64,000 nt of DNA from an uncultured delta proteobacterium (GCA_963775425.1 CAVZJB010000016.1:1024001-1088000); one strand, 5' to 3'; counted from the first letter of the stretch, positions 23,385 through 61,290 are shown. The notes: generated by a model from the sequence alone, not told the origin. Program-made: numbers and translations.

Positions 23385-23410
23385 TTATCGCAGGACGGTT
23401 ACCCAGGTTG
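23385..23410 (-). promoter_or_regulatory. Putative sigma28(FliA)-like promoter, copy 1
   Basis: The minus strand reads CAAC-ctgggtaaccgtcct-GCGATAA (15-nt spacer), about 60 nt upstream of ATG 23325. The same arrangement occurs at 61265-61290. Confidence 0.6.
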
Positions 23411-23544
23411 CGGATGTCGGCGAAGGTGTGATCGGATCCGAAGTCCGTGTTTATCCTACATTTCCCGCGCTTCGGCCCGCCGCCGCGTCCGCTCGGGGTC
23501 CGGGATTTCCCCCGCCTCGACCCCGCGCGTTATTCATACGGCGG

Positions 23545-24012
23545 ATGCCCGAGCCGGTAGATCCCCAGAAGCTGCCCGCGCTCCTGCCGAAATGGGCCGC
23601 CGGCCAGATCACGTTGAAGGAGCTCAAGGGCTACTCGGACGACGAGCTCTACGCCATCGCGCACACCGGCTACTTCTTCCTGATGCAGGGGAAGAACCAC
23701 GAGGCGCGCACGCTGTTCGAGGGCCTCGTCGCCATCGACCCGCGCAACGACTACTACTACCGCGCGCTCGGCGTGATCTTTCACAAGCTCGGCGACGCCG
23801 AGCGCGCGCTCAAGCAGTTCGGCTACGCCATCCGCGTGAGCCCGCGCTCGCCGAACGCCTACGTCAACCGCGCCGAGGTCTTCATCTCGACGTCGCGCTA
23901 CCAGGAGGCCGCCGGCGACCTGCGCCGCGCCCTCGAGCACATGGGGCCCCGCGACGTCGCGCTCGCCCGCAAGGCGCGCGCGCTCCTGGGCGTCGTCACG
24001 CGGAGACGATGA
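23545..24012 (+). CDS. Second SycD/LcrH-like TPR chaperone
   Basis: GQITLKELKGYSDDELYAIAHTGYFFLMQGKNHEARTLFEGLVAIDPRNDYYYRALG closely follows the SycD/LcrH N-terminal pattern. It is hidden at the end of the long 22465 ORF in the track. Confidence 0.8.
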   Translation: MPEPVDPQKLPALLPKWAAGQITLKELKGYSDDELYAIAHTGYFFLMQGKNHEARTLFEGLVAIDPRNDYYYRALGVIFHKLGDAERALKQFGYAIRVSPRSPNAYVNRAEVFISTSRYQEAAGDLRRALEHMGPRDVALARKARALLGVVTRRR

Positions 24013-24112
24013 TGCGCTTCGCCGCCGTCGCCCTCGTCGTCTTCGCCGCCGCGCGACGCGCCGGCGAGCGAGCGACGCGCAGCTTTGAGCACCCCCTCGT
24101 CGCGGGCCACTG

Positions 24113-24820
24113 ATGGCCGTCGAGCGCGCGGTCCTGCTCATCGCGGACATCGGCGGGTACACGCGCTTCATGACGTACCACCGGCTGAACCTCGCGCACG
24201 CGCAGGACACCATCGCGCGCCTGCTCGAGGCGGTCATCGACGCCGCCGGCCGGTTCAAGCTCGCCAAGCTCGAGGGCGACGCCGCGTTCTTCGCCGGCCC
24301 CGTCGCCGACGACACCGGCGACGCCGTCGCGGGCATGCGGCGCGCTTTCCTCAAACAGAAGAACAAGCTGGTCTCGGACCGCATGTGCACGTGCGACTCG
24401 TGCATGCAGATCGAGATGCTCAAGCTGAAGTTCGTGCTCCACGAGGGCGAGCTCGTGCGACAGAAGGTGAAGGGTCGCGAGGAGCTCGCGGGCGTCGACG
24501 TCATCCTCGTGCACCGCATGCTCAAAAACGACGTCCCGCTGAAGGAGTACGTGCTGGCCTCCGACCAGGCCAAAAAGCACGTCTCGCCGCTCGGCGAGCC
24601 CACCGAGATCATGCACAGCCTCGAGGGGCTCGGCGACGTGCGCACCCACTACGTCGACCTCACGACGCTGTCACTCGACGAGCCGCCGCCTCCGCCGCCC
24701 AAGGGGCTCAGGAAGCTCCTCACCAAGATCGCGTTCGAGGCCCGCTCGCTGCCGTACCTGATCGGCCTCAAAGAGCCGTGCAAGGACTTCGACTCGGTGC
24801 CCAAGCCCGACGAACGCTGA
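24113..24820 (+). CDS. DUF2652 family protein (nucleotide-cyclase-like fold)
   Basis: LLIADIGGYTRFM, KLEGDAAFF, CTCDSC, LKLKFVLHEGE and GVDVILVHRMLKN. Confidence 0.85.
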   Translation: MAVERAVLLIADIGGYTRFMTYHRLNLAHAQDTIARLLEAVIDAAGRFKLAKLEGDAAFFAGPVADDTGDAVAGMRRAFLKQKNKLVSDRMCTCDSCMQIEMLKLKFVLHEGELVRQKVKGREELAGVDVILVHRMLKNDVPLKEYVLASDQAKKHVSPLGEPTEIMHSLEGLGDVRTHYVDLTTLSLDEPPPPPPKGLRKLLTKIAFEARSLPYLIGLKEPCKDFDSVPKPDER

Positions 24821-24844
24821 AAGGCTGCCAAAAAATAAGGCTCG

Positions 24845-25460
24845 TAGCAGCACTCGGCGAAGCCGCCCACAAGGTGGCTCGCCGCGCGGAGTACGTGGCG
24901 AGGCACGTCGGCGCGCAAGAACCGCTGCAGGTTGTGAGGAAACGGCGGGTCCGAGCGGTGTTGTGATCCCGTTATCAGCGCACGTGGCGGGTTCGCGCGG
25001 GTCGTGTGCGCGCCGACGTGCCTCGATGCGACGTCGGCGCGGACCCACCGCCAAACTGCTCGGGGCCGATGAGGTCGTCCACGGCCTGGGTCTTCAGCTT
25101 GGGCGCTCTGAATCAGCGAAGGCTAGACAACGTCGCCACCGCCGGAGCGGAAGGAGCGGAGAGCTCGGCGCCCCGGCGCTCAACTCGGCGCGCGTCTTCG
25201 TCGCCGAGCTCGGAGCTCCTTTCCGCTCCGCCGTGTGGCCGTAGCACCGTCCCCTTCCGGGTGGCTCGGATCAACGGTCCATCGGGCCAGCCCTCGTCGC
25301 CAATCGCGCGCGCTGCATCGGCCGCAGGGCCCCCCTCGCGGGGCGCGTCGGAGGGCCCGGCGACGTCCCCGGCGTCTCTCCGACGCGGGCGACAAGCCCG
25401 CGCTACGGACCGTCGACGGAGCCGTCGGCCGTGGCCCGGGGCGCTGCGTCGACGGAGGTC
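24845..25460. other. Palindrome-rich intergenic region (candidate structured RNA or REP/MITE-like repeat cluster)
   Basis: 19-bp perfect inverted repeat at 24899-24917/25007-25025. 11-bp IR at 25009-25019/25031-25041. Long imperfect hairpin at 25144-25170/25202-25229. 10-bp IR at 25344-25353/25378-25387. No credible ORF. Confidence 0.5.
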
Positions 25461-25464
25461 GCGC

Positions 25465-26868
25465 TCACGCGCGGTAACGGGCGACGCGCAGGGCGGCGGC
25501 GAAGTCGGCGGCGGCGACGCGGGCGCTGTCGGGCTCGAGCTGTTCGATCTTGTCGTTGAGGGCCGCGCGCGCCTGCTCCCAGACGGCGTCGAACGCGCCG
25601 GCCTTCTCGACGACGAGGTGGAAGAGCTTCTCCGCGGGCTGCTTGTTGCCGTAGACGCCCGGACGAAAGAGCGTGAAGTCCCACGCGTAGGTGGCGGCGC
25701 CGTCGCCGTCGTCGTCGCGGACGATGGCGGCGAGGCCGGCGCTTATCTGCTCGGTGAGCGAGACCACCTCCCAGTGCCCCTCCTCGTGCTCGTCCTCGTC
25801 GTCGACGACGTTGGTGTGCCCGCGCCGCTCGTCGGCGATGTCCTCGTCGCCGGCGGGGGCGTTGCCGTCGCGCCCGGCCTTCCACGGATCGTCGACGTCG
25901 CCGGCCGCGCCGTCGGCGTGCGCCCCGGGGGCGCCGCTGTGCGCGAGCTCCTGCGGGGCGTCGCGCGCCTCGGCGCCGCGCGCCCCGTCGCCTCTCTGCG
26001 CGCCGTCGCCGCGGTCGGCGCGGCCGTCGCCGCGCGCGCCGTCGTCGCCGCGGGCGCTCCCCTCGGTGCGCGCGTCCTCACCGTGGGCGGCGGGAGCGCC
26101 TGAGCGTCCGTCGCCGGCGCGCGCCTCGTCGGCGGCGCGCGCGTCGCGGTTGTCCGACGACGTCAGCGGCAGCGCGCGCTCGTCGACGATGCCGCGGCGG
26201 ACCAGCGCCTCTGCGGTCTTTCCGTCGAGCTGCCCGGAGGCAGGGAGGCCCTCGGCGCGCTGCAGCTTCTTGAGCGCGTCCTTGAGCTGCTCGGCGCCCT
26301 TGCCGCCACCCGCGAAGCCCGCCGCGCGCAGCGACGACAGGAAGCTCTTCAGGTCGAGCTCGGGGGGCTTGTCGCGCGCGGACTTGTCCACCGCCTGCTC
26401 GAGCTCGACCGCCTGCGCGCTCCTGGCGCCCTCGGGGACGCCGGCGTCGCCACGGGGCAAGCCGAGGTCGCCGCCGAGCCGGCGCCCGTCGGCGTCGAAC
26501 GACGCGGGCCGCTCGCCCGCTCGCGCCGGCGCCGTCGTCGACGACGCCTCCTCGGCGCCGCGCGGCATGAGCCCGGCCTCCTCGAGCGCCGCGTGCGTCT
26601 CGTGATCGAGCACGCCGGTCTCCGGCAGGCCGCGCTCCTTCTGGAACAGCTTCAGCGCCTGCGCGAGCTCGCCGTCCGCGTTGCCCGTCTTGGCGACGGG
26701 GAAGCCGGCGGCGCGCAGCCCGGCCAGGAGCTGGGCGACGAGCTTCTTCGCCTCCGTCGGCGTGCGCGCCGAGCCGAAGTCCATGAGCCGCTGCAGCGGC
26801 GACTTCGGTTGTTGCCGCGCGGGCCGCGGCGCTTGCGGGAGCTCCGGGTGCTTTGCGCGGATGGCCAT
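25465..26868 (-). CDS. Protein with two peptidoglycan-binding-like (PG_binding_1) repeats and an unknown C-terminal domain
   Basis: LRAAGF...ALKLFQKERGLPETGVLDHETHAAL and LRAAGF...ALKKLQRAEGLPASGQLDGKTAEAL. Confidence 0.8.
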   Translation of the reverse strand: MAIRAKHPELPQAPRPARQQPKSPLQRLMDFGSARTPTEAKKLVAQLLAGLRAAGFPVAKTGNADGELAQALKLFQKERGLPETGVLDHETHAALEEAGLMPRGAEEASSTTAPARAGERPASFDADGRRLGGDLGLPRGDAGVPEGARSAQAVELEQAVDKSARDKPPELDLKSFLSSLRAAGFAGGGKGAEQLKDALKKLQRAEGLPASGQLDGKTAEALVRRGIVDERALPLTSSDNRDARAADEARAGDGRSGAPAAHGEDARTEGSARGDDGARGDGRADRGDGAQRGDGARGAEARDAPQELAHSGAPGAHADGAAGDVDDPWKAGRDGNAPAGDEDIADERRGHTNVVDDEDEHEEGHWEVVSLTEQISAGLAAIVRDDDGDGAATYAWDFTLFRPGVYGNKQPAEKLFHLVVEKAGAFDAVWEQARAALNDKIEQLEPDSARVAAADFAAALRVARYRA

Positions 26869-26911
26869 GGCGCACGACGAGGTTAGCCGATATGCGGCGC
26901 GCGGAGGTCCC

Positions 26912-29125
26912 ATGCTCCATGTCGTCGTCATCGCGGCCCTCGCTGCCGCGCCGAGCCTGTCCACGCAGAAGGCGGCCCCCGCCCCCCGCAAGGAGAACGC
27001 CGTGAAGTATCCCGTCGCCAAGAAGGGCAACGTCGTCGACGACTACCACGGGCAGAAGATCGCCGACCCGTACCGCTGGCTCGAGGACCCCGACGCCGAC
27101 GACACGCGCGCGTGGGTGAAGGCAGAAAACGAGGTCACCTTCGGCTGGCTCGACCGCGTCCCCGACCGCGACGCGCTCAAGCAGCGGCTCACCGAGCTGT
27201 GGAACTACGAGCGGTACAGCCCACCCTCCGTCGAGGGCAAGGGCAAGGACCAGCGCGTGTTCTTCTTCAAGAACGACGGCCTCCAGAACCAGGCGGTGCT
27301 CTACGTGCAGGACGTCCACGGCGGCGACGCCCGCGCGCAAGACGGCGTCAAGCTGTCGGCGCCGCGGGTGCTCCTCGACCCCAACACGTGGACCAAGGAC
27401 GGGACCGTGGCCCTGTCGGGGATGAGCGTCAGCGACGACGGCAGGCTCATGGCGTACGCCAGGTCCGTCGGCGGCAGCGACTGGATGGAGTGGCACGTCA
27501 TGGACGTGCGCACGGGCAAGGACCTTCCCGACGTCGTCAAGTGGTCCAAATTCTCCGGCGCCTCGTGGACCAAGGACGACAAGGGCTTCTTCTACTCGCG
27601 CTACCCGGAGCCCAAGAAGGGCGAGGACCTCGAGCAGGCCAACTACCACCAGAAGGTCTACTACCACCGCCTCGGCGAGCCGCAGGACAAGGACACCCTC
27701 GTCGTCGAGGACAAGGACCACAAGACGTGGGGCTTTTCCGCAGGCGTCACGGAGGACGGCCGCTACCTGCTGGTCCACGTCTGGGACGGCACCGACCGCC
27801 GCACCCGCGTCTGGTTCAAGGACCTGCACCAGAAGAAGGACGGGCCGCTCGTCAAGCTGTTCAACGACTTCGACGCCGCCTACGGCGTGCTCGGCAACGT
27901 CGGGAGCACGTTCTACGTGCAAACGGATCTCGACGCCCCCCGCCAACGCGTCGTGAGCGTGGACGTCGCGCACTTCAAGGAGGGCGACAAGCCCAAGCTC
28001 GTCGAGGTCATCCCGGAGGCGCCGAAAGACAAGCTCGACAGCGCCACGATGATCGGCGGCGGCTTCCTGGTGCGCTGGCTGCAGAACGCGCACGACGTCG
28101 TCACCATCCACGACATCCACGGCAAGAAGCTGCGCGACGTCGTCCTGCCGTCCATCGGCACCACCGGCGGCTTCGCCGGCCGCCAGAACGACAGCGAGAC
28201 CTGGTACGCCTTCACCTCGTTCACCTACCCGACGGTCATCTACAAGCTCGACGTGTCGTCCGGCGTGTCGACGCTGTTTCAACAGCCCAAGGTCAAGTTC
28301 AACCCCGCCGACTACGAGACCAAGCAGGTCTTCTACACGTCCAAGGACGGCACCCGGATCCCGATGTTCCTCGTGCACAAAAAGGGGCTCGCCTACGACG
28401 GCAAGAACCCCACGTACCTGTACGCCTACGGCGGCTTCAACATCTCGCTCACCCCGGCGTTCTCCACGGCGCTCATCGCTTGGCTCGAGAAGGGCGGCGT
28501 ATACGCGCAGCCGTCCCTGCGCGGCGGCGGCGAATTCGGCGAGGAGTGGCACCAGGCGGGCATGCTCGACAAGAAGCAGAACGTCTTCGACGACTTCGCG
28601 GCGGCGGCCCGGTGGCTCGTCGACAACGGGGTGACGTCACACGAGCGCCTCGGCATCGGCGGCGGGAGCAACGGGGGCCTGTTGTGCGGGGCCACCGTCA
28701 CGCAGCACCCGGAGCTCGTGGGCGCCGCCGTGTGCATGGTGGGCGTCATGGACATGCTGCGGTTCCACAAGTTCACCATCGGCCACGCGTGGGTGAGCGA
28801 GTACGGCAGCAGCGACGATCCGAAGATGTTCCCGGTGCTGCGCGCGTACTCCCCGCTGCACAACCTCAAGGAGGGCGTGAAGTACCCCGCCACGCTCATC
28901 ACCACCGCCGACCACGACGACCGCGTCGTCCCCGCGCACTCCTTCAAGTTCGCCGCCACCATGCAGGAGGCGCAGGGGGGCGACGCGCCCGTGCTCATCC
29001 GTATCGAGGTGAAGGCCGGCCACGGCGCGGGCAAGCCCACCTCCAAGCTCATCGAAGAGGCCGCTGACCGCTGGGCGTTCCTGCGGGCGGCCCTCGGCGT
29101 CGAAGAGCTCACCCCCGCGCGCTGA
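26912..29125 (+). CDS. Prolyl oligopeptidase (S9A), secreted
   Basis: DPYRWLED, YGGFNIS, GGSNGG (Ser), DHDDRV (Asp) and AGHGAGK (His), plus a signal peptide and GGAGG RBS. Confidence 0.97.
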   Translation: MLHVVVIAALAAAPSLSTQKAAPAPRKENAVKYPVAKKGNVVDDYHGQKIADPYRWLEDPDADDTRAWVKAENEVTFGWLDRVPDRDALKQRLTELWNYERYSPPSVEGKGKDQRVFFFKNDGLQNQAVLYVQDVHGGDARAQDGVKLSAPRVLLDPNTWTKDGTVALSGMSVSDDGRLMAYARSVGGSDWMEWHVMDVRTGKDLPDVVKWSKFSGASWTKDDKGFFYSRYPEPKKGEDLEQANYHQKVYYHRLGEPQDKDTLVVEDKDHKTWGFSAGVTEDGRYLLVHVWDGTDRRTRVWFKDLHQKKDGPLVKLFNDFDAAYGVLGNVGSTFYVQTDLDAPRQRVVSVDVAHFKEGDKPKLVEVIPEAPKDKLDSATMIGGGFLVRWLQNAHDVVTIHDIHGKKLRDVVLPSIGTTGGFAGRQNDSETWYAFTSFTYPTVIYKLDVSSGVSTLFQQPKVKFNPADYETKQVFYTSKDGTRIPMFLVHKKGLAYDGKNPTYLYAYGGFNISLTPAFSTALIAWLEKGGVYAQPSLRGGGEFGEEWHQAGMLDKKQNVFDDFAAAARWLVDNGVTSHERLGIGGGSNGGLLCGATVTQHPELVGAAVCMVGVMDMLRFHKFTIGHAWVSEYGSSDDPKMFPVLRAYSPLHNLKEGVKYPATLITTADHDDRVVPAHSFKFAATMQEAQGGDAPVLIRIEVKAGHGAGKPTSKLIEEAADRWAFLRAALGVEELTPAR

Positions 29126-29144
29126 CGTCGTGGCCCGCGCGCGC

Positions 29145-31121
29145 TCAGCCGCCGCAGACGGCGGCGGCGTCGACGGCGCAGTCGGTGGTGTCGACGGAGT
29201 TTCCGGTGTTGGTGAGCGCCGGCGCCGTCGACATCTGCGCCGCCAGCGCGTCGACCATGCACGCGGGGAGCTGCGGGTTCTGTTGAACCACCAGCGTGGT
29301 GGCGGAGCCGAGGTGCGCGAGCCCGTCGACGCTGGTCACGCGGGTGTTCTTGAGCGTCAGCGACGTCACCGACGCCAGACCGCACAGATCGAGGGACGTG
29401 ATGCGCGCGCCGTCGACGACGACGACGGGCGCGGTGGTGAGCGTAGGGAGCGAGAGGTCCGTGACGTCGCTGGTGCCGCCGAAGGTGTCGATGTCGAACA
29501 CGAGCTGGCCGACGTCCTCGAGGGCCGTGAGCTTGGCGAGATCGGCCTGGTCGAGCCCGGTGATGTTGAGGTTTCCGCCGACCGTGGTGAACGCGGACAG
29601 CTCGTCCTCGAGGACGGCCGGGAAGAGGAGGACGTCGCCGTCGACGGAGACGAGCTGGATCAGGCCATGGATGTCGTCGTCGTTGGGCAGGAGGAGCCCG
29701 CCGGCGCCGACGTGGGTGAGGCCGGCGAGGCTCACGCTCGTGAGCAGGTTGTTGGCGGTGATCTCGAGGCCGCCGACGTCCGTGAGCGCGTCGAGGTCGA
29801 GGCTGCCGACGTCGGTGCCGACGTAGTGGAGCGTGCCGTCCACCGTCCGGAGGCTGTGGAGGTCGAACGAGGTGACTGCGCTGTTGTCGTCGGGGACGAC
29901 GCCGACGTTCGGGTCGGTGAAGGCGTTGCCGACGATGCGGAGGTCGCCGGGCCGATAGAAGCCGCTGGCGAGCGCGTCGTCGTAGAACCGGGAGTAGAGC
30001 TGCGACTGGAAGTCGTCGACGGCGTGGATCTGCTCGAGGGCCCCGAAGTCGAGCTGGAGCTCGCTGCCGTTTTTGAGGTTGTCGTTGCTGTCGAGGAGCA
30101 GCGTCCCGGTGCCGGTGAGCACGGGGAACGAGACGCGCGTGAGGACGTCGTTGCCGAAGAGGACGACGGAGCCGCCGATGGTGGTGAGGGCGGGCAGGTT
30201 GAGCGTGGTGAGCTTGTCGGCGTCCTCGAGATCGAAGAAGCCCCCGATGGTCGCGAGCTGGTGCGCGTCGAGGGCGGCGAGGAGCGGGAGCGTGGCGGCG
30301 ACAGCGCCGTCGGCGCTCGGGAAGCTCGGATACTTGTACGTGCTCCAGGCCACGCCGCCGCCGACGTCGTGGAGCGCGGGCACGCTCAGGCTCTGCAGGA
30401 GGGCGAGGGCCTCGACGAAGAAGTCGCCGCCTACGGACGTGAGGGACTCGAGGTCGACGGCGGTGAGATCGGCGTCGCTGTCGACGATGAGGTCGCCGTC
30501 GACGACGGCGAGCTCGGGCATGTCGAGACCGGTGAGCCCGGTGACGCCGATGACATGCAGGTTGCCGTGGACCACGGCGAGCTTCATGGCGGAGACGTCG
30601 TTGAGGGAGACGCCGTCGGCGGTGACGTCGCCGTCGACCTCCTCCACGCCGGCGGCGGCGTCGACGTCGGCCTGGCTCCCGAGCGTGAGGGCCTCGCGCA
30701 GGACCTTCCTGACGTGCACGGTGACGGAGGCGTCGACGATGTCGGTGGTGGCGCCCTGGCACGCGAGCGTGACGACGACGTCGCCCGCGTCCTGGAAGCT
30801 CGCGGTGGCGGAGCCGTTCACGTCGATGGTCTGCCCGGGGAGCGCGTCGAGCCCGCAGGTGAGGGCGTTGTCGGTGCTCCAGGTGAAGGTGACCTCCTCC
30901 TCGCCGGCGTCGCGCACGGCGGCTTTGTCGACGGTGAAGGCGTCGATGGTGGGGGCCGGCGGCGCGTCGCCCGGGAGGCACGCCTTGCTCGCGCTGCAGA
31001 AGTAGCCCGACGGGCACGCGCCGTCGCACGGCAGCCCGAAGGCGGGCGCGTCGCTCGCCGGGATGGGGCAGGCCGCGAGGAGCGCGACCGGCGCGAGCGC
31101 GCCGAGCGCGCGGGCCCTCAT
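29145..31121 (-). CDS. Lipoprotein with Cys-rich N-terminus, Ig-like domain and receptor-L-domain/LRR-like repeats
   Basis: Internal start MRARALGALAPVALLAAC (lipobox) with a GGGGG RBS. Many LxxVGGxLxIxxNxxLxxLxL repeats. Confidence 0.75.
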   Translation of the reverse strand: MRARALGALAPVALLAACPIPASDAPAFGLPCDGACPSGYFCSASKACLPGDAPPAPTIDAFTVDKAAVRDAGEEEVTFTWSTDNALTCGLDALPGQTIDVNGSATASFQDAGDVVVTLACQGATTDIVDASVTVHVRKVLREALTLGSQADVDAAAGVEEVDGDVTADGVSLNDVSAMKLAVVHGNLHVIGVTGLTGLDMPELAVVDGDLIVDSDADLTAVDLESLTSVGGDFFVEALALLQSLSVPALHDVGGGVAWSTYKYPSFPSADGAVAATLPLLAALDAHQLATIGGFFDLEDADKLTTLNLPALTTIGGSVVLFGNDVLTRVSFPVLTGTGTLLLDSNDNLKNGSELQLDFGALEQIHAVDDFQSQLYSRFYDDALASGFYRPGDLRIVGNAFTDPNVGVVPDDNSAVTSFDLHSLRTVDGTLHYVGTDVGSLDLDALTDVGGLEITANNLLTSVSLAGLTHVGAGGLLLPNDDDIHGLIQLVSVDGDVLLFPAVLEDELSAFTTVGGNLNITGLDQADLAKLTALEDVGQLVFDIDTFGGTSDVTDLSLPTLTTAPVVVVDGARITSLDLCGLASVTSLTLKNTRVTSVDGLAHLGSATTLVVQQNPQLPACMVDALAAQMSTAPALTNTGNSVDTTDCAVDAAAVCGG

Positions 31122-32087
31122 GGCGCACCCCCTTGCGTCGTCGGGGGCGTCGTCGTTTGGGGGCGGTGTCGAGGACGCGGCATCGGGCGACGAGAGGGCC
31201 CACACGACGCCCCAGACGGCGACGGGCACACCGATGGCGGCGACTGCGGCGCCCGCGTCGACCGCGATGCTGCCCGCGGCGTTCCAGGTCTGGCGCGCGT
31301 CGGCGAGGTCCTGCTGCGCGGTCTGGGCCGCGGCGAGCGTAGAGGGATCCTTGGCGAAGCCGGCCTCGGCGGCGGCCACGCGACCCTTGGCGTCACCGTA
31401 TTGAAACAGCGGCACGAGGCCGACGCCGACGAGCGCGAGCCCGACGAGAGTGGCAACGCCGCCGCCGCCGGCCACCACCCACGGCAGCGCCCCCGGCCCC
31501 TGCGCCACCGGCGCGCGCTGCTCTTCTTCCTTCTCCGGCGCGAGCGGCGGCAGGACCAGGCCATGCTCCTCGTAGAAGCGGCCGATCAGCTCGTGGAGCT
31601 TGGGGCGCAGCTTTTTGGGGATGCGCTTGACGTCTTCGGCCTGCACGATGACGCGGCCGAGGCCGACGGCCTTTTGCGAGTCGAAGAGGTTGAGGTTCAA
31701 GACGAGCGCGTCGCCGAGCGTGCCGACGTTACCGAAGACCACGAGCTGCGCGCCCAGGGCGTCGGCTATCTCGGCGAGGCACGATGCGTCCTCGCTGCAG
31801 CCCATGCTCGAGCGATCGGCCTCGAGCTGCACAAGCTGCTTGAGGTCGTCGCCGGAGACGACGTCGAGCGCGGCGTACTGCGACAGCCCCGTGGCAACGA
31901 GCCCCTGCAGCGTGGTCACGATGGAGGCGTCGACGTCGTTCGCCTTCAGGTCGAGCACCAGCAGGCGGTAGCGCGCGGCGGCCTTGTCCGTCGCGGGCGG
32001 CGCCGCAGCCGTCGCGGGCGGCGTCGGGGGATCGGCGAGCGCAGCGGCGGACGCGAACGCGACGAGCGTGAGGGCGGCGAGGCGCAT
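31118..32087 (-). CDS. Secreted/membrane hypothetical protein; appears fused in frame to the downstream gene, probably through a 1-bp indel
   Basis: Signal peptide, CSEDASCLAEIADALGAQLVVFG domain and C-terminal TM helices. Removing one base from the G5 run at 31159-31163 gives ...QTTTPPTTQGGAP* ending in an ATGA overlap. Confidence 0.65.
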
Positions 32088-32153
32088 GGTGCCCATTGCT
32101 AGCACAGGCCCCGCGCGCCGGCCGCGGCGACGGGGCGCGGCGCGGGACGGGGC

Positions 32154-32906: not shown

Positions 32907-32969
32907 GCCGGCCGAACCAGCGGCGGCGCCCCGTGATTTCCGGAGGGAGCGGCCGCGCACCTGCGCCGA

Positions 32970-50051: not shown

Positions 50052-50063
50052 CTCGAGCGCGCC

Positions 50064-51374: not shown

Positions 51375-51383
51375 CGTTTTCCT

Positions 51384-51881: not shown

Positions 51882-51928
51882 GTGCGTCCACCCTCGCACG
51901 CGCACCCCTGCTTCGCTAGACCGATTCG

Positions 51929-52291
51929 GTGCTCGATCCCTTCGACCTGTTCTGCGCGTACCACCTCGGCCTCGACGGAGCGGGCCGCGTTCGCTTCGCC
52001 AACATCCACGACGTCGCGCGGCGATTTGCCACCGGCGTCGACGTCGTCGAGGCCGCGTTGGAGTCCTACGGCATGGACGCCGCGCGCATGCTCGAGATCG
52101 ACTTCGACCTCGCCGCCGCGCAGCACGACATCCAGGTCTCACCGCCGGGCGTCGACCTGCCGAGCATCGCGCGCATGCACTTCGACCTCTTCCTCGCCGC
52201 CCGGGAGAGGCCCCGCGACTGGGACAAGGAGCTCGCCGCCGACGCCGCCGCCAACGCCGAGACCTTCGGCGGCCGCGGGCCCCGGCGCTGA
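51929..52291 (+). CDS. Hypothetical protein
   Basis: Strong coding bias, DPFDLFCAYHLG motif and an upstream GCTA-N10-GTG motif. Confidence 0.75.
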   Translation: MLDPFDLFCAYHLGLDGAGRVRFANIHDVARRFATGVDVVEAALESYGMDAARMLEIDFDLAAAQHDIQVSPPGVDLPSIARMHFDLFLAARERPRDWDKELAADAAANAETFGGRGPRR

Positions 52292-52319
52292 TCATCAGCG
52301 CGCTCCCGCCGGTCGCTGA

Positions 52320-54347: not shown

Positions 54348-54482
54348 CGTCGCGCTCCTCCGGTCCCGGCGCCCGGCGCGCCGCGTGGGTTCCCTTAGCG
54401 GGGTCTCGGCCGGTTGTCGACGTCACACTCACGACGAGCTGCGTCATGGCGCCGGACGGTGCTCCAAGGCTACCCTGGGCAC

Positions 54483-54917
54483 ATGATCCGCAACATCATC
54501 GGCTCCTGGGCCTTCGCCGCGTTCCTCGTCGTCGTCGCCGTCGCCACGTGGCGCCTGCTCGACGCCAGCCGCGCCCCGGCCGCCCCGCACTGCCCGCTGG
54601 CGGCCCACGCCGCCGCCGTCGTCGTGCCGGAGCAGGCACCGCAGGTCGCGGAGCCGCAGCAGGAGGCGCCCCCGCCGGTGGCACACACCTGCGGCGCTGG
54701 CGGCTTCGCCTACGACGAGGCCGTGAACGACGCCCCCGTCGCCCAGGCCCTCAGCGAGCGGGAGGGGCAGGTGATGTTCGAGAGCGCCGTCGACGCGTTC
54801 CGCGCCAATCACGACGCCAAGGCGTGCTCCATCCTCTTCACGGTCATGCACCGCTCGGCCTCCGGCTCCCACTTCGTCGCGAAGTCCGCGGGCCTCTTCA
54901 AGGCGCGCTGCCGCTAG
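54483..54917 (+). CDS. Hypothetical membrane-anchored protein
   Basis: N-terminal TM helix and a GCTA-N10-ATG motif. Confidence 0.65.
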   Translation: MIRNIIGSWAFAAFLVVVAVATWRLLDASRAPAAPHCPLAAHAAAVVVPEQAPQVAEPQQEAPPPVAHTCGAGGFAYDEAVNDAPVAQALSEREGQVMFESAVDAFRANHDAKACSILFTVMHRSASGSHFVAKSAGLFKARCR

Positions 54918-54941
54918 CCGTGACGCAGCGGGGCCGCTGAC

Positions 54942-55376
54942 TCAGGCCCCGAGCGGCCGCACCGCGATGGTGCAGCGGCACACCGAGACGAGCTTGCCGT
55001 CGTTCTCCACGACGATCGCGTAGACCAGCGAGGTCCTGCCTTTGTGCAGCGGCGTCGCCGTGGCGCGCAGGGTGCCCTCCGTCGCCGAGCGCACGTGGCT
55101 CGCGGAGATCTCCTGCCCGGCCACGCGAAAGCGCGTCACGTCCACCGCGAGCGCCGCCGCCGCCGACGCCGCGCTCTCGGCCATCAACACGTAGACGCCG
55201 CCGTGGACGATGCCGGCGTGCTGAAAGAGCCGCTCGTCGACGTCGGTCTCGACGACCACGCGGTCCGCCGTGATCTCCACCGCGCGGATGCCCAGCGTGT
55301 GCAGCACCGTGTGGGGATCGCGCTCGCGCATGAAGGCGATGACATCGTCGACGCTCGGCGGCTTGTGCTCGCTCAT
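54942..55376 (-). CDS. PaaI/hotdog-fold thioesterase
   Basis: QHAGIVHGGVYVLMAESAAS, EISASHVRS and PLHKGRT. Confidence 0.9.
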   Translation of the reverse strand: MSEHKPPSVDDVIAFMRERDPHTVLHTLGIRAVEITADRVVVETDVDERLFQHAGIVHGGVYVLMAESAASAAAALAVDVTRFRVAGQEISASHVRSATEGTLRATATPLHKGRTSLVYAIVVENDGKLVSVCRCTIAVRPLGA

Positions 55377-55442
55377 CGCTCGTTCTCCGGTTAGGCTGCG
55401 CTCCCGCGGCGTCGTCTCCGCGTTCCCCCGGAGCAAGTCACG

Positions 55443-55985
55443 ATGAGCCAGTCCCCGCAAGCAAGCACCGATCAAGGGCCGTCCGTCACACTGCCCGTCC
55501 TCGGCATCGTCTTGTCCGTCCTGTGCTTCCCCGTAGGGCTCGTGCTCGCCATCGTGTCGATGGTGAAGTACTCGTCGGCCGTCGGCACCAGCGCCAAGAC
55601 GCTCTCGGTGGTGGCGCTGGTGGTGTCGCTCGCCATGGTCGGGTTGCAGGGCGTCGGCTGCCTCGCCGCCATCGCCATCCCCAACTTCGTCAAGTACCAG
55701 TGCAAGAGCAAGCAGTCCGAGGCCAAGGCCAACCTGCGGGCGCTCGGGGTCGCCGAGCACGGTTACGCCGCGGACAACGGCGGCTTCAGCGCCGATCTCC
55801 ACGCGCTTGGCTTCGAGGCGCACGGCGTGCACGTCCGCTACGACTACGTCGTGGACCGCGCCGACAAGGAGCACTTCCACGCCGTGGCCACGGCCAAGCC
55901 CGGGGCGGCCGGGGAGCTCAACGGCGACAGTTGGGAGATCGACGAGAGCGGCCTGCCCCGCAACACCGTCGACGGCTGCCGCTAG
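55443..55985 (+). CDS. DUF4190-like TM hairpin fused to a type IV pilin-like domain
   Basis: LAAIAIPNFVKYQCKSKQSEAKANL is a PilA-type helix. It is preceded by TM helices rather than a G|FTLIE prepilin site. Confidence 0.75.
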   Translation: MSQSPQASTDQGPSVTLPVLGIVLSVLCFPVGLVLAIVSMVKYSSAVGTSAKTLSVVALVVSLAMVGLQGVGCLAAIAIPNFVKYQCKSKQSEAKANLRALGVAEHGYAADNGGFSADLHALGFEAHGVHVRYDYVVDRADKEHFHAVATAKPGAAGELNGDSWEIDESGLPRNTVDGCR

Positions 55986-56015
55986 AGAAGTGATCCGCAT
56001 CGCGGAATAGGGTCA

Positions 56016-56089
56016 GTGCCGGCACGCGGTGGGCCCGCCGCCGATGCGCGTGCCGGCACGCCCGCCGCTTCGTGCGCATTTTTGTTTTT
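56016..56089. terminator. Hairpin(s) plus T-tract between convergent genes
   Basis: 13-bp IR GTGCCGGCACGCG/CGCGTGCCGGCAC at 56016-56059. GCACG...CGTGC stem followed by TTTTTGTTTTT on the + strand. Confidence 0.55.
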
Positions 56090-56106
56090 GCGGTTCAACT
56101 CTCTGG

Positions 56107-59100
56107 TCACGCCAAAGCGGCGTCCACGATCGCCTTCTGCTCGGCGACGTGCCGCTTGTGCGAGCCCGCGGCCGGGCTCGCCTGCGCCGGGCGCCCGACG
56201 TAGCGCGCGGTGACGCCCAGCGCGCGCAGGCGCGGCTCCATGAAGGACCAGGCGCCCATGTTCTCGGGCTCCTCCTGCGCCCACACCACCTCGTCGGGAC
56301 GCACGTCGTCGAGCACGGCGCGCACGCGCTCCTCGGGGAACGGGTAGAGCTGCTCGACGCGCACGACGGCCACGTCGCCCTTCGGTTCCTTCCTGCGGGT
56401 GCGATCGATGTCCCAGTAGAGCTTGCCCGTGCAGAGCACCAGGCGCCGGCACGCGGGGCCCCGGGTGCGGCGCGGGTCCTCGAGCACGGGCTCGAAGCGT
56501 CCGCCGGCGAGGTCGTCGACGTGGGAGGCCGCGTCGTCGGCGCGCAACAGGCTCTTGTGCGTGAACACGATGAGCGGCTTCTTCGGCAGCTTGGCCTGGC
56601 GCCGGATCAGGTGGAAGTACTGCGCCGGCGTCGACGCGATGGCCACGCGCATGTTGTCGTCGGCGCAGAGCTGGAGGAACCGCTCCACGCGCGCGCTCGA
56701 GTGCTCGGGTCCCTGCCCGTCGTAGCCGTGCGGCAGCAGCATCACCACGCGCGAGCGCTGGCCCCACTTGGCCTCGCCGGCGGCGATGAACTGGTCCACC
56801 TGGACCTGCGCCCCGTTCCAGAAGTCGCCGAACTGCGCCTCCCATAAAACGAGCGAGTCGGGGTGGCTGACGGAGTAGCCGTACTCGAAGCCGAGCACCG
56901 CCTCCTCCGACAACAGCGAGTCGTAGATGCGGAAGCGCGACGGGTGCCACTGCTCCTCGCCCTCGTCGCGCGACTTGTGCAGGAAATTGAGCGGGATGTA
57001 GGGGCGGCCGTCGTTGACGTCGTACAGGACCGCGTGGCGCTGGGCGAAGGTCCCGCGGCCCACGTCCTGGCCGGACAGCCGCACAGGCACGCCCTCGAGC
57101 AGCAGCGAGCCGAAGGCGAGGTTCTCCGCCATGCCGAAGTCGATGCCGGGCTTGCCCTCGAAGACCATGCTGCGGCGCTTGTCGAGGATCTGCGTCTTCA
57201 CCCGCGGGTGGATCTCGATGACCTCGGGCGCGTAGGTGATGCGGTCGGTGATGCGCTTGAGCGTGTCGACGGGGACGGTAGTGTCAACCGTGTCGGGGTC
57301 GACGACGTCGGAGAGCGCCAGGCTGCCCGTGCGGCGCGCCGGGGGGACGGCGGCGCGCCCCTTCTCCTTGATGGCGCCGAACGCGGCCTCGAGGCGCTCG
57401 TGGACGGCGGCGTCGACGGCCTTCACCTCGTCGTCGCTGAGGTCGCCGCGGCGCACCAGCAGCGCGGAATAGTGGTCCTGTGTGGGCTCGTGGCCCTCGA
57501 TGGCCCGGTAGAGGATGGGCTGCGTGAAGCTCGGCTCGTCGCCCTCGTTGTGGCCCCAGCGGCGGTAGCAGACCATGTCGATGACGACGTCGCGGGCGAA
57601 CTTCATCCGGTATTCGCACGCGATGCGCATGGCGCGAACGCACGCCTCGGGGTCGTCGCCGTTGACGCGCAGGATGGGCGCCTGGATGGCGCGCGCGATG
57701 TCCGAGCAATTCATGCTCGTGCGGGCGCGCTCGGGCCCGGTGGTGTAGCCGATCTGGTTGTTGATGATGACGTGGACGGTGCCGCCGACGCGGTAGCCGT
57801 TGAGCCCCGACATCTGCAGCACCTCGTAGACCACGCCCTGCCCCGCGAACGCGGCGTCGCCATGGATGAGGAACGGCACCACCTTCCTGCGGGCGCGGTC
57901 GCCGGTCATGTCCTGCTTGGCGCGGGTCTGCCCGAGCACCACCGGGTCCACCGCCTCGAGGTGGCTCGGGTTGCACGCGAGCTCGAGCCGGAGCGCGCGC
58001 TCCTCGACGTGGGCGCTGCCGTCGAGCGTGAGCCCCTTCCACTTGTGAACGCCCTTGGCGCCGAGGTGGTACTTCACGTCGCCGGAGCCCTCGGCGCCGC
58101 CCGGCCCGGGCGCGCGGGCCGGCCCGGCGTCGAAGTCCTCGAACTCCGCGAAGATGGCCTCGAGCGGCTTGCCGATGACGTTGGCGAGCACGTTCAAGCG
58201 GCCGCGGTGCGCCATGCCGATGACGGCCTCCGTGGCGCCGAAGGCGGCGGCCATGTCGAGGCCCTCGACGAGCATGACCATGGCGCTCTCGGCGCCCTCC
58301 ACCGAGAAGCGCTTCTGTCCGATGTAGCGCTTGTGCAGGAAGCGCTCGAAGCCCTGGGCCTGGCAGAGCGTGGCGAGGATCTGCTTCTTGTCGTCGATGG
58401 ACAGCACGTCGGGCTTGCGCTCCACGCGCTGCTTGAGCCACGTCCGCTGCTCGACGTCGGCGATGTGCATGTACTCGAGGCCGAGCCGACGGCAGTACGT
58501 GTCGCGGAGCCGCTCGAGGATCTCGCGCAGCGGCGCGATGGGCTTCTCGCAGACGCCGAGCGTGAGGAACTCGCGGTCGAGATCCCAGATGGTGAGCCCG
58601 TACTGATCGATGTTGACGTCGGCGTGTTCGCGCGGCTTGAGGTCGAGCGGGTCGACGTTGGCCACGATGTGGCCACGAACGCGAAACGCGTGGATGAGCT
58701 GTGAGACGCGCATCGCCTTTTCGGTGTCGGCGAACGATCCGCCGATCACCGCGCGGTCGCGCTTGAGCCGGTAGGGGTGGTGCGGGATGCGGATGGCCTG
58801 GAACAGCTCGTCGTAGAACCCGTGCTCGCCGTTCAACAGCTCGTGCACGCGCTGCAGGTACGCGCCCGACTCCGCGCCCTGGATGATGCGGTGGTCGTAC
58901 GTCGACGTCACCGTCATCACCTTGCCTACGCCGAGCTGGCGGATGGTGTCCGGCGCCATGGCCTCGTACTCGGCGGGGTAGCCGATGGCGCCGGTGGCGA
59001 TGATGGCCCCCTGCCCCGGCATCAAGCGCGGCGCCGACGCCACCGTGCCGATACCGCCCGGGTTGGTGAGCGTCATGGTGGTGCCGTCGAAGTCGGCGGC

Positions 59101-59769
59101 GGTGAGCTTTCCCCGCCGGGCGCGATCGATGAGATCGATGTACGCCTCGAGGAACGCGCGGAAGTCGAGCTTCTGCGCGGCCTTCACGTTGGGCACCACC
59201 AGCGTGCGCCCGCCGCCGCGGCCGGGGAGGTCGATGGCGATGCCGAGGTTGACGTCGTCGCGGACGATGCGCGCGGGCTTGCCCCCGACGACGGCGAAGC
59301 CGTGGTTCATCGAGGTCACCTGGTGCACGGCCTTCACCAGCGCGAACGCGATGATGTGCGTGTAGCTCGCGCGCGGCCGCGCGTCGTCCTCGAGGTACGT
59401 GTTGATGACGCGGCGGTTCTCCTCGAGCACCTTGACCGGCACCGTGCGCGACGACATCGCCGTGGGCAGCTCGAGCGACGCCTCCATGTTCTCGACGATC
59501 TTCGCGGCCACGCCGACGAGCAGCTCCGCCGACCCCGCCGGCGGCGGCGCAGGCGCAGGCGCAGGCGCAGGCGCGGACGGACGGACGGACACCGCATGCT
59601 GCGGCGCGGGCCCCCCGTTGCCGCCGTCGCCGGCGGCGGGTGCCGCAACGTCGGCGGCGAAGAACGCGCGCCACTCGTCGGCGACGCTCATCGGATCCTG
59701 CGCCCACTGCGCACGCAAGGACTCCACGTAGCTCGCGTTCACACCGAAGCGGGAGGCCGAGTCGACCAT
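56107..59769 (-). CDS. sucA: Multifunctional 2-oxoglutarate dehydrogenase E1 with N-terminal E2-like acyltransferase domain (OdhA/Kgd type)
   Basis: FGVNASYVE; E2-like TLTNPGGIGT and TYDHRIIQGA; then E1 motifs GMAHRGRLN, GDVKYHLG, HGDAAFAGQG and LLPHGYDGQGPEHSSAR. Confidence 0.95.
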   Translation of the reverse strand: MVDSASRFGVNASYVESLRAQWAQDPMSVADEWRAFFAADVAAPAAGDGGNGGPAPQHAVSVRPSAPAPAPAPAPPPAGSAELLVGVAAKIVENMEASLELPTAMSSRTVPVKVLEENRRVINTYLEDDARPRASYTHIIAFALVKAVHQVTSMNHGFAVVGGKPARIVRDDVNLGIAIDLPGRGGGRTLVVPNVKAAQKLDFRAFLEAYIDLIDRARRGKLTAADFDGTTMTLTNPGGIGTVASAPRLMPGQGAIIATGAIGYPAEYEAMAPDTIRQLGVGKVMTVTSTYDHRIIQGAESGAYLQRVHELLNGEHGFYDELFQAIRIPHHPYRLKRDRAVIGGSFADTEKAMRVSQLIHAFRVRGHIVANVDPLDLKPREHADVNIDQYGLTIWDLDREFLTLGVCEKPIAPLREILERLRDTYCRRLGLEYMHIADVEQRTWLKQRVERKPDVLSIDDKKQILATLCQAQGFERFLHKRYIGQKRFSVEGAESAMVMLVEGLDMAAAFGATEAVIGMAHRGRLNVLANVIGKPLEAIFAEFEDFDAGPARAPGPGGAEGSGDVKYHLGAKGVHKWKGLTLDGSAHVEERALRLELACNPSHLEAVDPVVLGQTRAKQDMTGDRARRKVVPFLIHGDAAFAGQGVVYEVLQMSGLNGYRVGGTVHVIINNQIGYTTGPERARTSMNCSDIARAIQAPILRVNGDDPEACVRAMRIACEYRMKFARDVVIDMVCYRRWGHNEGDEPSFTQPILYRAIEGHEPTQDHYSALLVRRGDLSDDEVKAVDAAVHERLEAAFGAIKEKGRAAVPPARRTGSLALSDVVDPDTVDTTVPVDTLKRITDRITYAPEVIEIHPRVKTQILDKRRSMVFEGKPGIDFGMAENLAFGSLLLEGVPVRLSGQDVGRGTFAQRHAVLYDVNDGRPYIPLNFLHKSRDEGEEQWHPSRFRIYDSLLSEEAVLGFEYGYSVSHPDSLVLWEAQFGDFWNGAQVQVDQFIAAGEAKWGQRSRVVMLLPHGYDGQGPEHSSARVERFLQLCADDNMRVAIASTPAQYFHLIRRQAKLPKKPLIVFTHKSLLRADDAASHVDDLAGGRFEPVLEDPRRTRGPACRRLVLCTGKLYWDIDRTRRKEPKGDVAVVRVEQLYPFPEERVRAVLDDVRPDEVVWAQEEPENMGAWSFMEPRLRALGVTARYVGRPAQASPAAGSHKRHVAEQKAIVDAALA

Positions 59770-59886
59770 GCGACCGCTGTACCAACGAGTCCCGTCATCG
59801 TCGAGGACCTGAGCGTTGTTAGAGCAAACCGTGGCGTCGTAAATCCGCGGCCCCCTCACCGGCCGGTCGCTGAGAGGAGCACCTTC

Positions 59887-60279
59887 ATGCAGCCCGCACT
59901 CCCCCCCGTTCAGACTGCGTCCACCGGGGAGCTCGTGTCCGAGCTCGTCCGGCAGACCGGCGATCTCGTCAAAGCCGAGCTGTCCCTCGCGCGGACCGAG
60001 CTGCGCCACGACGTGCAGGCGGAGCTGTCGATGGTCGCGCGCGCCGCCGTCGCCGTGGTCTGCGTCCTGTGGGCCGTCGACGCGTTGCTCGTGGCAGCGG
60101 TGCTCGGCCTCGCCGTCGCGCTCCCGGCGTGGCTGGCGGCCCTGATCGTCGCCGCCGGCCTTCTCGCCGTCGCGCTCGTCGCCGGGCTGCTCGCGTGGTC
60201 GAAGCGCACCCGTCCCCTCTCACGAACCGCGCGAACGCTTCAGGAGAATGTGCGATGGGCGAAACAACGACTGGCGTAG
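59887..60279 (+). CDS. Holin-superfamily-like membrane protein (YqjE/DUF1469 type)
   Basis: STGELVSEL...LVKAELSLARTEL, two TM helices and RTLQENVRW, with an AGGAG RBS. Confidence 0.82.
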   Translation: MQPALPPVQTASTGELVSELVRQTGDLVKAELSLARTELRHDVQAELSMVARAAVAVVCVLWAVDALLVAAVLGLAVALPAWLAALIVAAGLLAVALVAGLLAWSKRTRPLSRTARTLQENVRWAKQRLA

Positions 60280-60746
60280 ACACCCCCGACCTGCTCGAGC
60301 TGCAGATCGACAACATCCGCAACAACGTCATCGGCATCGTCGACGAGCTCGACCACCGGCGGCAGGACTGGGGTGCGCGCCTCAAGCACCGCACGAGCAT
60401 GGTCGCGCTGGGCGGGCTCGTCCTCGTCGCCGGCGCGGTCGCCGCGGGCGTGCTCCTCGGCCGGCGGCGGCGACATCATCGTCGGCTCGCGGGACGCGCG
60501 AGGAACCTGGGCCGCGCCGTGGCCCGCGTCGCCGACGATCCCGACGTGCTGCTGCGGCGGCCCTCGATGTCCGCCCGCGTGCTGGGCGCGGCGCTGGCGG
60601 CGGTGGCGGCGACGGTGGCCAAACAGCTCACGATCCGCGCGCTGGCGGCGCCGAAGGCCCCGCGGCAACTGCAGGCGCCGTCGCGGGTGGAGCGAGCGGC
60701 CGCGCGGCAGGCGAGCAAGCAGCCGTGGCGCGCGCTCAACCCATGA
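60255..60746 (+). CDS. DUF3618-like membrane protein
   Basis: LELQIDNIRNNVIGIVDELDHR followed by a TM helix. This is the usual partner of the preceding family. Confidence 0.65.
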   Translation: MGETTTGVDTPDLLELQIDNIRNNVIGIVDELDHRRQDWGARLKHRTSMVALGGLVLVAGAVAAGVLLGRRRRHHRRLAGRARNLGRAVARVADDPDVLLRRPSMSARVLGAALAAVAATVAKQLTIRALAAPKAPRQLQAPSRVERAAARQASKQPWRALNP

Positions 60747-60764
60747 GCGAGGGCGGGGGAGCGC

Positions 60765-61244
60765 TCAGCCGGCCTGGGTGCCGATGATGCGGCCGTAGAT
60801 CTGCTCCTGCATCTCCTGGAGGTGCTTGAGGAGCTGGAGCATGTTGTGCTCGCGGGTGGCCGAGGCGCGCATGCGGTCGGCGTCCTCGGGCTTCACGCCG
60901 GAGGGCAGCTTGAGCGCCTGCGTCAGCGCCTTCGCGGTGTCCGTCGCCGCACGCTGAAGCGCCCGGCGGATCATCATGTGGTCGTGGCGGGGGCCCGTGG
61001 GCGTAGCGAAGGGGTTCGCCGCCTCCGGCACCGCCAGCCGCAGCGTCTCCGACGACGTCGAAGGCTGGATGAACTCCACCGGCCCGCGCTGGGCGATGGG
61101 AGCGACATCCGACTTCTGCACCTTGGCAGGTGTCTGGTGGACCTTCAGCTCGTCGGCGGTCATCCCCGCCGGGCCGATGGCGCCGCCGGACGGAGAGACC
61201 CACGGGAACCTGCGCACCTGCCGTTTTTGTAGCTCTTCCGCCAT
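60765..61244 (-). CDS. Hypothetical protein downstream of sctU; candidate T3SS substrate
   Basis: GAGG RBS, Pro-rich N-terminus and C-terminal amphipathic helix MLQLLKHLQEMQEQIYGRIIGTQAG. Confidence 0.7.
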   Translation of the reverse strand: MAEELQKRQVRRFPWVSPSGGAIGPAGMTADELKVHQTPAKVQKSDVAPIAQRGPVEFIQPSTSSETLRLAVPEAANPFATPTGPRHDHMMIRRALQRAATDTAKALTQALKLPSGVKPEDADRMRASATREHNMLQLLKHLQEMQEQIYGRIIGTQAG

Positions 61245-61264
61245 GGGCACGACCTCAGCGACGA

Positions 61265-61290
61265 TTATCGCCGAACGGGGCCGGGGGTTG
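61265..61290 (-). promoter_or_regulatory. Putative sigma28(FliA)-like promoter, copy 2, embedded in the 3' end of sctU
   Basis: The minus strand reads CAAC-ccccggccccgttcg-GCGATAA (15-nt spacer). The TAA is the sctU stop, 20 nt upstream of ATG 61244. Confidence 0.6.

Follow-up and report, generated by a model that had tools for sequence, protein, structure and literature searches.

A conserved two-block promoter-like element upstream of two unannotated, type III secretion-linked gene families of Myxococcota

We analysed a 64,000-nucleotide stretch of DNA from an uncultured delta proteobacterium (GCA_963775425.1 CAVZJB010000016.1:1024001-1088000; this whole stretch is the window below), which is ∼72% G+C and whose genes resemble those of a Myxococcota genome (a DUF4388 response regulator, PEGA-domain proteins and Ser/Thr kinases). 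Its minus strand carries two copies of a bipartite element, CAACC-N14-GCGATAA, the first (copy 1) upstream of a gene of no named family, P0001, and the second (copy 2) at the end of the export-switch gene sctU, upstream of another such gene, P0002. Both P0001 and P0002 encode plausible type III secretion system (T3SS) substrates. We found that the element upstream of P0002 is conserved wherever P0002 follows sctU in relatives, and that a matrix derived from those relatives recovers copy 1 in the window. The motif is probably a real regulatory switch, and its design points to an alternative-sigma promoter that mixes the rules of sigma-28 promoters with those of extracytoplasmic function (ECF) sigma promoters.

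The two copies had been proposed from a sequence-only reading of the window, and both are present on the minus strand as described, CAACCTGGGTAACCGTCCTGCGATAA at 23410-23385 and CAACCCCCGGCCCCGTTCGGCGATAA at 61290-61265. A search of both window strands found these two instances of GCGATAA and no third, as had been noted by eye. Each copy is oriented towards its gene, the motif ending 59 nt (copy 1) or 20 nt (copy 2) before the ATG, and the ribosome-binding sites ascribed to the two genes are also there, as GGAG and GAGG 8–9 nt before the two start codons. No sigma-70-type promoter was found at either copy. Finding GCGATAA twice is in itself unremarkable (1.70 expected; 55 of 100 shuffled sequences had at least 2), and the full CAAC-N15-GCGATAA is expected 0.01 times, none of 100 shuffles containing 2. 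This pattern was defined after looking, and so we used as a post hoc control the 7-mers present exactly twice in the window, 48 of 1248 of which (3.85%) share a run of at least 5 bases at the same offset 8–25 nt upstream. Since the pattern was chosen post hoc and this fraction of twice-occurring 7-mers does likewise, the observation in the window alone is real but weakly significant (p ∼0.04). With 2 mismatches allowed the matches rose to 5, where 2.03 are expected and 3 of 100 shuffles reached 5 or more; none of the three extra matches retains the TAA.

The evidence that decides the matter lies in relatives and not in the window itself. Scanning genome contigs with SctU as query yielded 13 Myxococcota loci (L001–L013), the window's own genome not being among them, in which SctU is 58–77% identical to the query. 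A P0002 homologue follows sctU in L002 and L004–L011 (tblastn, 29–78% identity), and L001 has the start of the gene at its contig end. The sequence-only reading had called for a check of conservation in orthologous upstream regions. At the P0002 locus this check gave a clear answer: CAAC-N15/16/17-CGATA lies just upstream in 10 of the 10 relatives that carry P0002 after sctU, and it is kept whether its position is coding or intergenic. Two relatives, L012 and L013, have sctU without P0002 behind it and the motif is likewise absent after their sctU; the contig of L003 ends at sctU and is uninformative on this association. Motif and P0002 therefore travel together, in 10 of 10 loci with P0002 and 0 of 2 without. 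In a MAFFT alignment running from the conserved SctU core to the P0002 start (the window plus the 10 relatives), columns are on average 40% identical, and only CGATA and the start-codon region show no variation. CAAC comes close to this, a single sequence, with a spacer of 15 nt, falling out of register.

The 10 sites of the relatives and the two window copies make a set of 12 with the consensus ccGCAACC-N14-(G/C)CGATAA. The upstream (−35) block reads GCAAC in 10 and ACAAC in 2, and for the downstream (−10) half most relatives have CCGATAA or GCCGATAA. CAAC and CGATA are separated by a spacer of 16 nt in 10 of the 12 sites, 15 nt in L009, whose genome is 45% G+C, and 17 nt in L011; its sequence is unconserved. 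From the −10 block to the ATG the distance ranges from 16 to 92 nt. Numbering the sites by the fliC promoter of Pseudomonas aeruginosa, which also supplies our predicted +1 positions, revealed conserved bases outside both blocks: C at −21 (10/12; 23398 and 61278 in the window), G at the predicted +1 (10/12), C at −6 (9/12) and T at −5 (8/12).

We trained a two-block weight matrix exclusively on the sites of the 10 relatives, down-weighting the close relatives L004, L006 and L007, and scanned both window strands with it. Copy 1 headed the ranking at 23.2 bits, followed by copy 2 at 21.7 bits and by a third match at 12.8 bits; the best scores of 300 first-order Markov null windows had a mean of 14.0 (s.d. 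2.0), the highest being 20.7. Copy 1 is not orthologous to any training site yet scores highest, and it has C at −21 and G at +1, as in the orthologous sites. Because a matrix blind to the window ranks copy 1 first, and because of these two further bases, we take both window copies to be instances of one conserved element. The recovery of copy 1 by a relatives-trained matrix also makes it reasonable to use the motif as a regulon key for the genes of this system, as the sequence-only reading had suggested. A further site was seen in L012, on the minus strand at 16540-16515: in the gap between pfk and a family-less open reading frame (ORF) of 146 aa stands an exact CAAC-N16-CGATAA whose GCCGATAA is perfect. 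It is 5.5 kb away from sctU, which in this relative is not followed by P0002. Its matrix score, 15.5 bits, falls within the null range, and we therefore keep it only as a candidate third target.

The gene whose last codons carry copy 2 bears on both the origin of the element and its likely control. The SctU profile of NCBIfam (TIGR01404) scores it at 361 bits, passing the cut-off of 358 by 3 bits, and the FlhB profile (TIGR00328) falls just below its own cut-off (337.2 versus 349.25). Among PDB structures flagellar FlhB chains match this SctU better (3.8e-51 to 1.6e-40) than do the injectisome proteins SpaS (3.5e-34) or YscU. By these comparisons the secretion system sits between the flagellar and injectisome types, and an SctU so like FlhB raises the prior for flagellar-style control.

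In the window, the final 33 codons of sctU after the conserved NFVYEL (61265-61363) form a variable, low-complexity, rare-codon tail that crosses copy 2. The codons singled out by the sequence-only reading are indeed rare across 33 window genes: ACA makes up 2.5% of Thr codons and CGA 3.4% of Arg codons, and the stop of sctU is the sole TAA among 33 stop codons. GTT is rare as well, at 2.0% of Val codons. Comparison with the relatives showed that the motif persists in each of three coding contexts. In five genomes (the window, L001, L002, L005 and L008) sctU ends at the TAA of the −10 block; in L004, L006 and L007 it ends at a TGA within the spacer; and in L009, L010 and L011 its stop precedes CAAC by 1, 59 and 112 nt, respectively. 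Past NFVYEL the SctU tail is 6 residues long in L009–L011 and 33–58 in the others. Since the predicted promoter is intergenic in the relatives with short SctU, its history is most likely that of an ancestral, intergenic element, with high-GC sctU frames losing their stop and running on to the first available one. Run-on to the promoter's own TAA would explain the rare codons at the sctU end. What is conserved there is the signal and not the protein, and selection acts on the DNA signal; in this respect the earlier suggestion of selection on the motif stands, and its picture of a promoter written into the gene most likely has the direction of cause reversed. The flgM class 3 promoter of Salmonella lies inside flgA and resembles the promoter predicted at the sctU end.

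What kind of element this is can be judged from its anatomy: two unlike blocks at a fixed distance, separated by free sequence and standing at a variable distance from the start codon. Because the spacer is fixed in length and free in sequence, and the distance to the ATG varies so widely, we read it as a predicted promoter for an alternative sigma factor and not as an RNA leader or a translated motif. The flagellar consensus for sigma-28 is −35 TAAA and −10 GCCGATAA (PMC8325347), and in P. aeruginosa fliC the −35 TCTAAAG spans −36 to −30 and GCCGATAA spans −15 to −8 (PMC12784957). At −15 to −8 the 12 sites match 7–8 of the 8 positions of GCCGATAA: CGATA (−13 to −9) is present in all 12, while A at −8 is shared by 8 sites, C at −14 by 9 and G at −15 by 7. 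The spacing is also that of sigma-28, CAAC-N14-(N)CCGATAA, in 10 of the 12 sites, and the other two differ by 1 nt. ECF promoters follow a different rule, AAC and CGT separated by 16±1 nt (PMC3426412), and here too there is partial agreement, in that AAC is followed by CGA at 16 nt in 10 of the 12 sites, at 15 nt in L009 and at 17 nt in L011. The predicted promoter is, on these comparisons, a hybrid of the sigma-28 and ECF rules. Such a hybrid is less odd than it might seem, because FliA-like sigmas have been placed where group 3 borders on the ECF family, group 4 (PMC7826278).

We give an even chance to the reader being a sigma of the sigma-28 (FliA/WhiG) family whose −35 preference has changed from TAAA to GCAAC through an altered region 4. 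A sigma-28-type sigma is favoured because eight positions reproduce GCCGATAA, as against an ECF resemblance of three bases, and because CGT is absent from all 12 sites. The sequence-only reading had likewise named a variant sigma-28; the conserved, correctly oriented promoter-like element and its sigma-28-type −10 fit this, the −35 is unlike TAAA, and no FliA-family reader emerged from the DNA scanned. Observed here are the motif, how it is conserved, its geometry and its association with these genes; its action as a promoter, the choice of sigma and the secretion of the gene products are inferences, and the scheme that follows is conditional throughout. One alternative sigma factor would read both copies. 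Copy 1 would drive an operon of P0001 and a chaperone-like gene, and copy 2, as an internal or downstream promoter at the sctU end, would drive P0002. Because sctU and the genes divergent from it carry no copy in the matrix scan of the window, the motif would mark a class apart from the apparatus gene, a separate and probably late class of T3SS-linked genes comparable to those behind flagellar class 3 promoters. A bolder extension, which we consider unlikely, is that this non-flagellar T3SS kept the class 3 logic whole: a re-specified FliA-family sigma would serve the late secreted parts, P0002 would be the counterpart of FlgM, and the motif would be a genome-wide key to needle- or translocon-like parts, of which P0001 would be one. 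P0002, probably an extended protein, would then hold the sigma until the machine exports P0002.

Several observations weigh against a sigma-28-type reader and this circuit. GCAAC occupies −34 to −30, where only its two central A's agree with TAAAG, and the AAC within that block, present in all 12 sites, is an ECF signature. Both copies in the window depart from GCCGATAA at one of its 8 positions, −14, where they have G and not C, and so match 7. Searches for sigma-70-family genes gave none among 65 window ORFs searched with Pfam, 12 ORFs searched with NCBIfam or 95 ORFs from nine relatives' loci, those of the relatives lying within 10 kb of sctU. P0002 showed no likeness to FlgM: it gave no Pfam match at E up to 1, and a PDB profile search with 33 family members returned no FlgM at E up to 10. 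Finally, the known sites are two in the window and one weak extra candidate, and the regulon is a putative one.

The main rival holds that the same conserved promoter is read by a T3SS-dedicated ECF (group 4) sigma, like HrpL of Pseudomonas syringae and Erwinia, with AAC (−35) and CGA (−10) standing in for the usual AAC and CGT. We regard this as possible, though clearly less probable than a sigma-28-type reader. The full hrp-box consensus of HrpL is GGAACC-N15/16-CCACNNA; the −35 block here matches 5 of its 6 bases, the −10 is CCGATAA and not CCACNNA, and the 14-nt spacer is 1–2 nt shorter. GCAACC is thus one base from the GGAACC of the hrp box, and hrp-box promoters within the 3′ end of an upstream ORF are documented (PMC4544800). 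The AAC and its distance from CGA fit the ECF rule described above, ECF32 sigmas are reported to be genomically tied to T3SS clusters (PMC7826278), and M. xanthus is credited with about 45 ECF sigmas (PMC12288465). On the other side, the −10 triplet is CGA and never CGT in the 12 sites, and the −10 as a whole spans eight conserved positions that reproduce GCCGATAA, whereas a usual ECF −10 comprises 3–5 bases. ECF sigmas are described as typically adjoining their targets or autoregulating (PMC3426412), but no ECF sigma or anti-sigma gene lies beside the targets or within 10 kb of sctU in the scanned loci, and no Sigma70_r2 or Sigma70_r4 match was obtained among the scanned ORFs of the window and relatives.

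Quite unlikely, in our view, is that the element is a binding site for a transcription factor, whether activator or repressor, or an RNA-level signal in an sctU–P0002 transcript. Conserved bipartite DNA boxes can be operators, and copy 2 would lie inside a transcribed region if sctU and P0002 were co-transcribed. The two blocks are however unlike each other and form neither direct nor inverted repeats of the kind seen in dimeric factor sites. An RNA signal is opposed by the variable distance to the ATG, by RNAalifold, which found 0 conserved pairs over 8 sites, and by Rfam, which found no match in the window. A conserved G, moreover, stands exactly at the +1 predicted for a sigma-28-type promoter. 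Least probable is that the likeness of the two window copies is chance and copy 2 alone functional, since, for all that the coincidence within the window is weak, copy 1 outscores both copy 2 and every null window, shares C at −21 and G at +1 with the orthologous sites, and sits intergenic and correctly oriented ahead of a gene flanked by two T3SS-chaperone-like genes.

The coordinates of the predicted promoters and of the genes around them are collected in Table 1.

Table 1. Predicted promoter copies and neighbouring genes, in window coordinates
Feature	Position	Strand	Remarks
Promoter copy 1 (predicted)	23383..23413	-	Intergenic; top matrix match of window
Copy 1, −35 block GCAACC	23411-23406	-	Followed by 14-nt spacer
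Copy 1, −10 block TGCGATAA	23392-23385	-	
Copy 1, predicted +1	23377	-	G
Promoter copy 2 (predicted)	61263..61293	-	Last sctU codons; second-best matrix match of window
Copy 2, −35 block ACAACC	61291-61286	-	Followed by 14-nt spacer
Copy 2, −10 block GGCGATAA	61272-61265	-	
Copy 2, predicted +1	61257	-	T; G at 61256
P0001, 291 aa	22450..23325	-	Predicted copy 1-driven gene; no named family
TPR protein resembling LcrH/SycD class II T3SS chaperones	21659..22399	-	50 nt downstream of P0001
Second TPR gene, paralogue of the first	23592..24113	+	Divergent from P0001
P0002, 159 aa	60765..61244	-	Predicted copy 2-driven gene; small conserved family following sctU in relatives
sctU/flhB-family export-switch gene	61265..62482	-	Pfam Bac_export_2 1.8e-111, 373 bits; start codon uncertain
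First gene divergent from sctU	62452-63357	+	No family (Pfam, NCBIfam)
Second gene divergent from sctU	63317 to beyond window end	+	No family (Pfam, NCBIfam)

P0002 has 60 representatives in 1.84 billion proteins. Among the 97 homologues listed, the only name given is 'hypothetical protein' and the named organisms are Deltaproteobacteria metagenome-assembled genomes (MAGs). Its start codon is supported by alignment. Columns of the family alignment are 61% identical on average and include long Pro-rich stretches without variation; few effectors would be expected to be so conserved, which is why a structural or regulatory partner fits better than an effector as a description of P0002. The link to the T3SS comes from the fixed place of P0002 after sctU in the relatives and from Atlas leads that are weak (0.85 or less), several of them T3SS-themed. 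Pfam, NCBIfam, a PDB profile search and 29 distant members were tried for assignment to any named family and gave nothing beyond two stray, unrelated matches. The central segment of P0002 matched repeats in five very large proteins, which we treated as a low-complexity artefact because the domains of these five proteins are heterogeneous. A domain shared between P0001 and P0002 was likewise rejected (hhalign probability 0.3%).

P0001 combines a Gly-rich, hydrophobic N-terminal half with a highly conserved C-terminal helix. All source names among the 118 homologues listed are 'hypothetical protein', the named organisms again being Deltaproteobacteria MAGs, and the start codon is backed by an alignment in which M1 is nearly invariant. 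Members of the family are 39–81% identical overall, and the last ∼45 residues (about 246–291; 22450-22590, minus strand) are almost invariant, SRNIEFE..KNE.QK..QMQQ..S..L, which suggests a polymerisation or docking helix. No Pfam family was matched at E up to 1, the T3SS needle family PF09392 included, and no NCBIfam family; a match to XaxA is marginal (E 0.014). In the Atlas, and as a lead only, T3SS_needle_F is assigned to 10–27% of the members of clusters neighbouring P0001 (scores 0.89 and 0.81). Two LcrH/SycD-like neighbours, the lack of any other family and the weak XaxA and Atlas leads together make P0001 a candidate needle-, filament- or translocator-like substrate of the T3SS.

The tetratricopeptide repeat (TPR) gene downstream of P0001 is probably in the same operon, and its true start may be an ATG 33 nt inside the listed TTG start. 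Its product matches the NCBIfam LcrH_SycD profile TIGR02552 with E 3.1e-21 (75.5 bits, below the cut-off of 104.8), and in the PDB its matches to SycD (1.5e-7), PcrH (9.5e-7) and AcrH (7.9e-5) span the whole chaperone, designed or generic TPR proteins scoring higher. The same protein used as a tblastn query found 34% identity over 135 aa at 23584-23985 on the plus strand (E 1e-19), in the second TPR gene, which itself had no Pfam family and no PDB match. Two paralogous LcrH/SycD-like TPR genes thus bracket P0001, in an arrangement reminiscent of translocator or needle-chaperone loci. L013, a relative without P0002 and motif, has a gene for a CesT-like T3SS chaperone (Pfam CesT_Tir_1, 3.2e-27) at 92-1348 on the minus strand, beside pspA and ∼1 kb from sctU.

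The gene pair divergent from sctU is syntenic in L004, L006, L007, L008 and L010 (tblastn) and may belong to the same system. One of the two encodes a coiled-coil protein. As hidden regulators or T3SS parts they were not supported, a PDB profile search returning either nothing or coiled-coil designs alone. The relatives have sctU and P0002 as a module of two genes, isolated amid housekeeping genes (pilMNOPQ, efp, an Rsm22-like methyltransferase gene and sucA); the 10 kb around sctU hold no further core T3SS gene. Of these neighbours, pilMNOPQ and efp lie a few kb from the module, upstream of sctU, in L004, L006, L007, L009 and L010; in L004 and L007 a gene resembling type IV pilins is found beyond P0002, at a distance of a few hundred bases to ∼2 kb; and the window has a weak pilin-like ORF at 55443-55985 on the plus strand (E 2e-4), ∼4.8 kb beyond P0002. 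Elsewhere in the window and unrelated to the motif, two adjacent ORFs with PAPS-reductase domains, 18442-19422 and 19316-20074 (together 18442-20074, minus strand), overlap by ∼100 nt, so that one start is probably mis-set; they adjoin sulfite reductase and CysN-like genes.

One close likeness among known systems is to the class 3 promoters of sigma-28 (FliA/SigD/WhiG), which have the same 8-bp extended −10, a −35 ∼15 nt upstream and G at +1, and like them the motif would front genes of late or secreted type and not the export-apparatus gene. Unlike them, it has GCAAC(C) in place of TAAA, its targets are T3SS-linked, family-less genes of Myxococcota, and no flagellar genes, fliA or flgM were seen in the DNA examined here. 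The hrp box of HrpL (ECF32) offers a second parallel, being a dedicated-sigma promoter that marks scattered T3SS effector and helper genes and serves as a regulon key; unlike in HrpL systems, no hrpL-like gene or two-component system lies nearby. WhiG is described as controlling type IV pili in Rubrobacter (PMC8325347), and Chlamydia is described as encoding a sigma-28 (PMC10597470). The WhiG–RsiG pair of Rubrobacter and the sigma-28 of flagellum-less Chlamydia are precedents for a sigma of the flagellar clade serving a non-flagellar machine, although both sigmas keep a TAAA −35 and the −35 here is changed. In M. xanthus, SigF is reported to regulate S-motility genes (PMC9548883).

The system of M. 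xanthus termed T3SS*, from the same phylum as the present one, is described as non-flagellar, as acting in contact-dependent predation and as having no needle and translocon homologues; no promoter or sigma is reported for it in the accessible part of that account (PMC10849154). Unlike T3SS*, the present system has a motif-driven gene (as predicted) flanked by LcrH/SycD-like genes and encoding a needle-like C-terminal helix, the latter being an Atlas lead only. Those of its T3SS genes that were seen are scattered as small modules in housekeeping surroundings. A literature search, which mostly left subscription journals outside, found no report of the motif or of a sigma for a Myxococcota T3SS. 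What appears to be new is the combination of −35 and −10; alternative-sigma promoters that mark T3SS-linked genes are known.

No key to a T3SS regulon is more practical than an alternative-sigma promoter: most effectors of P. syringae were found through the hrp box, and sigma-28 sites define the late flagellar genes. For the myxobacterial T3SS family, a compact, conserved motif of ∼23 bits that links two unannotated, T3SS-adjacent families is a direct way to list candidate substrates in these genomes. If the sigma that reads it is a relative of FliA, a flagellar circuit would survive in a non-flagellar secretion system, with a −35 specificity between group 3 and the ECF family. And if P0002 were in truth the counterpart of FlgM, the motif would expose needle- or translocon-like parts in a phylum whose model T3SS* has been described without any.

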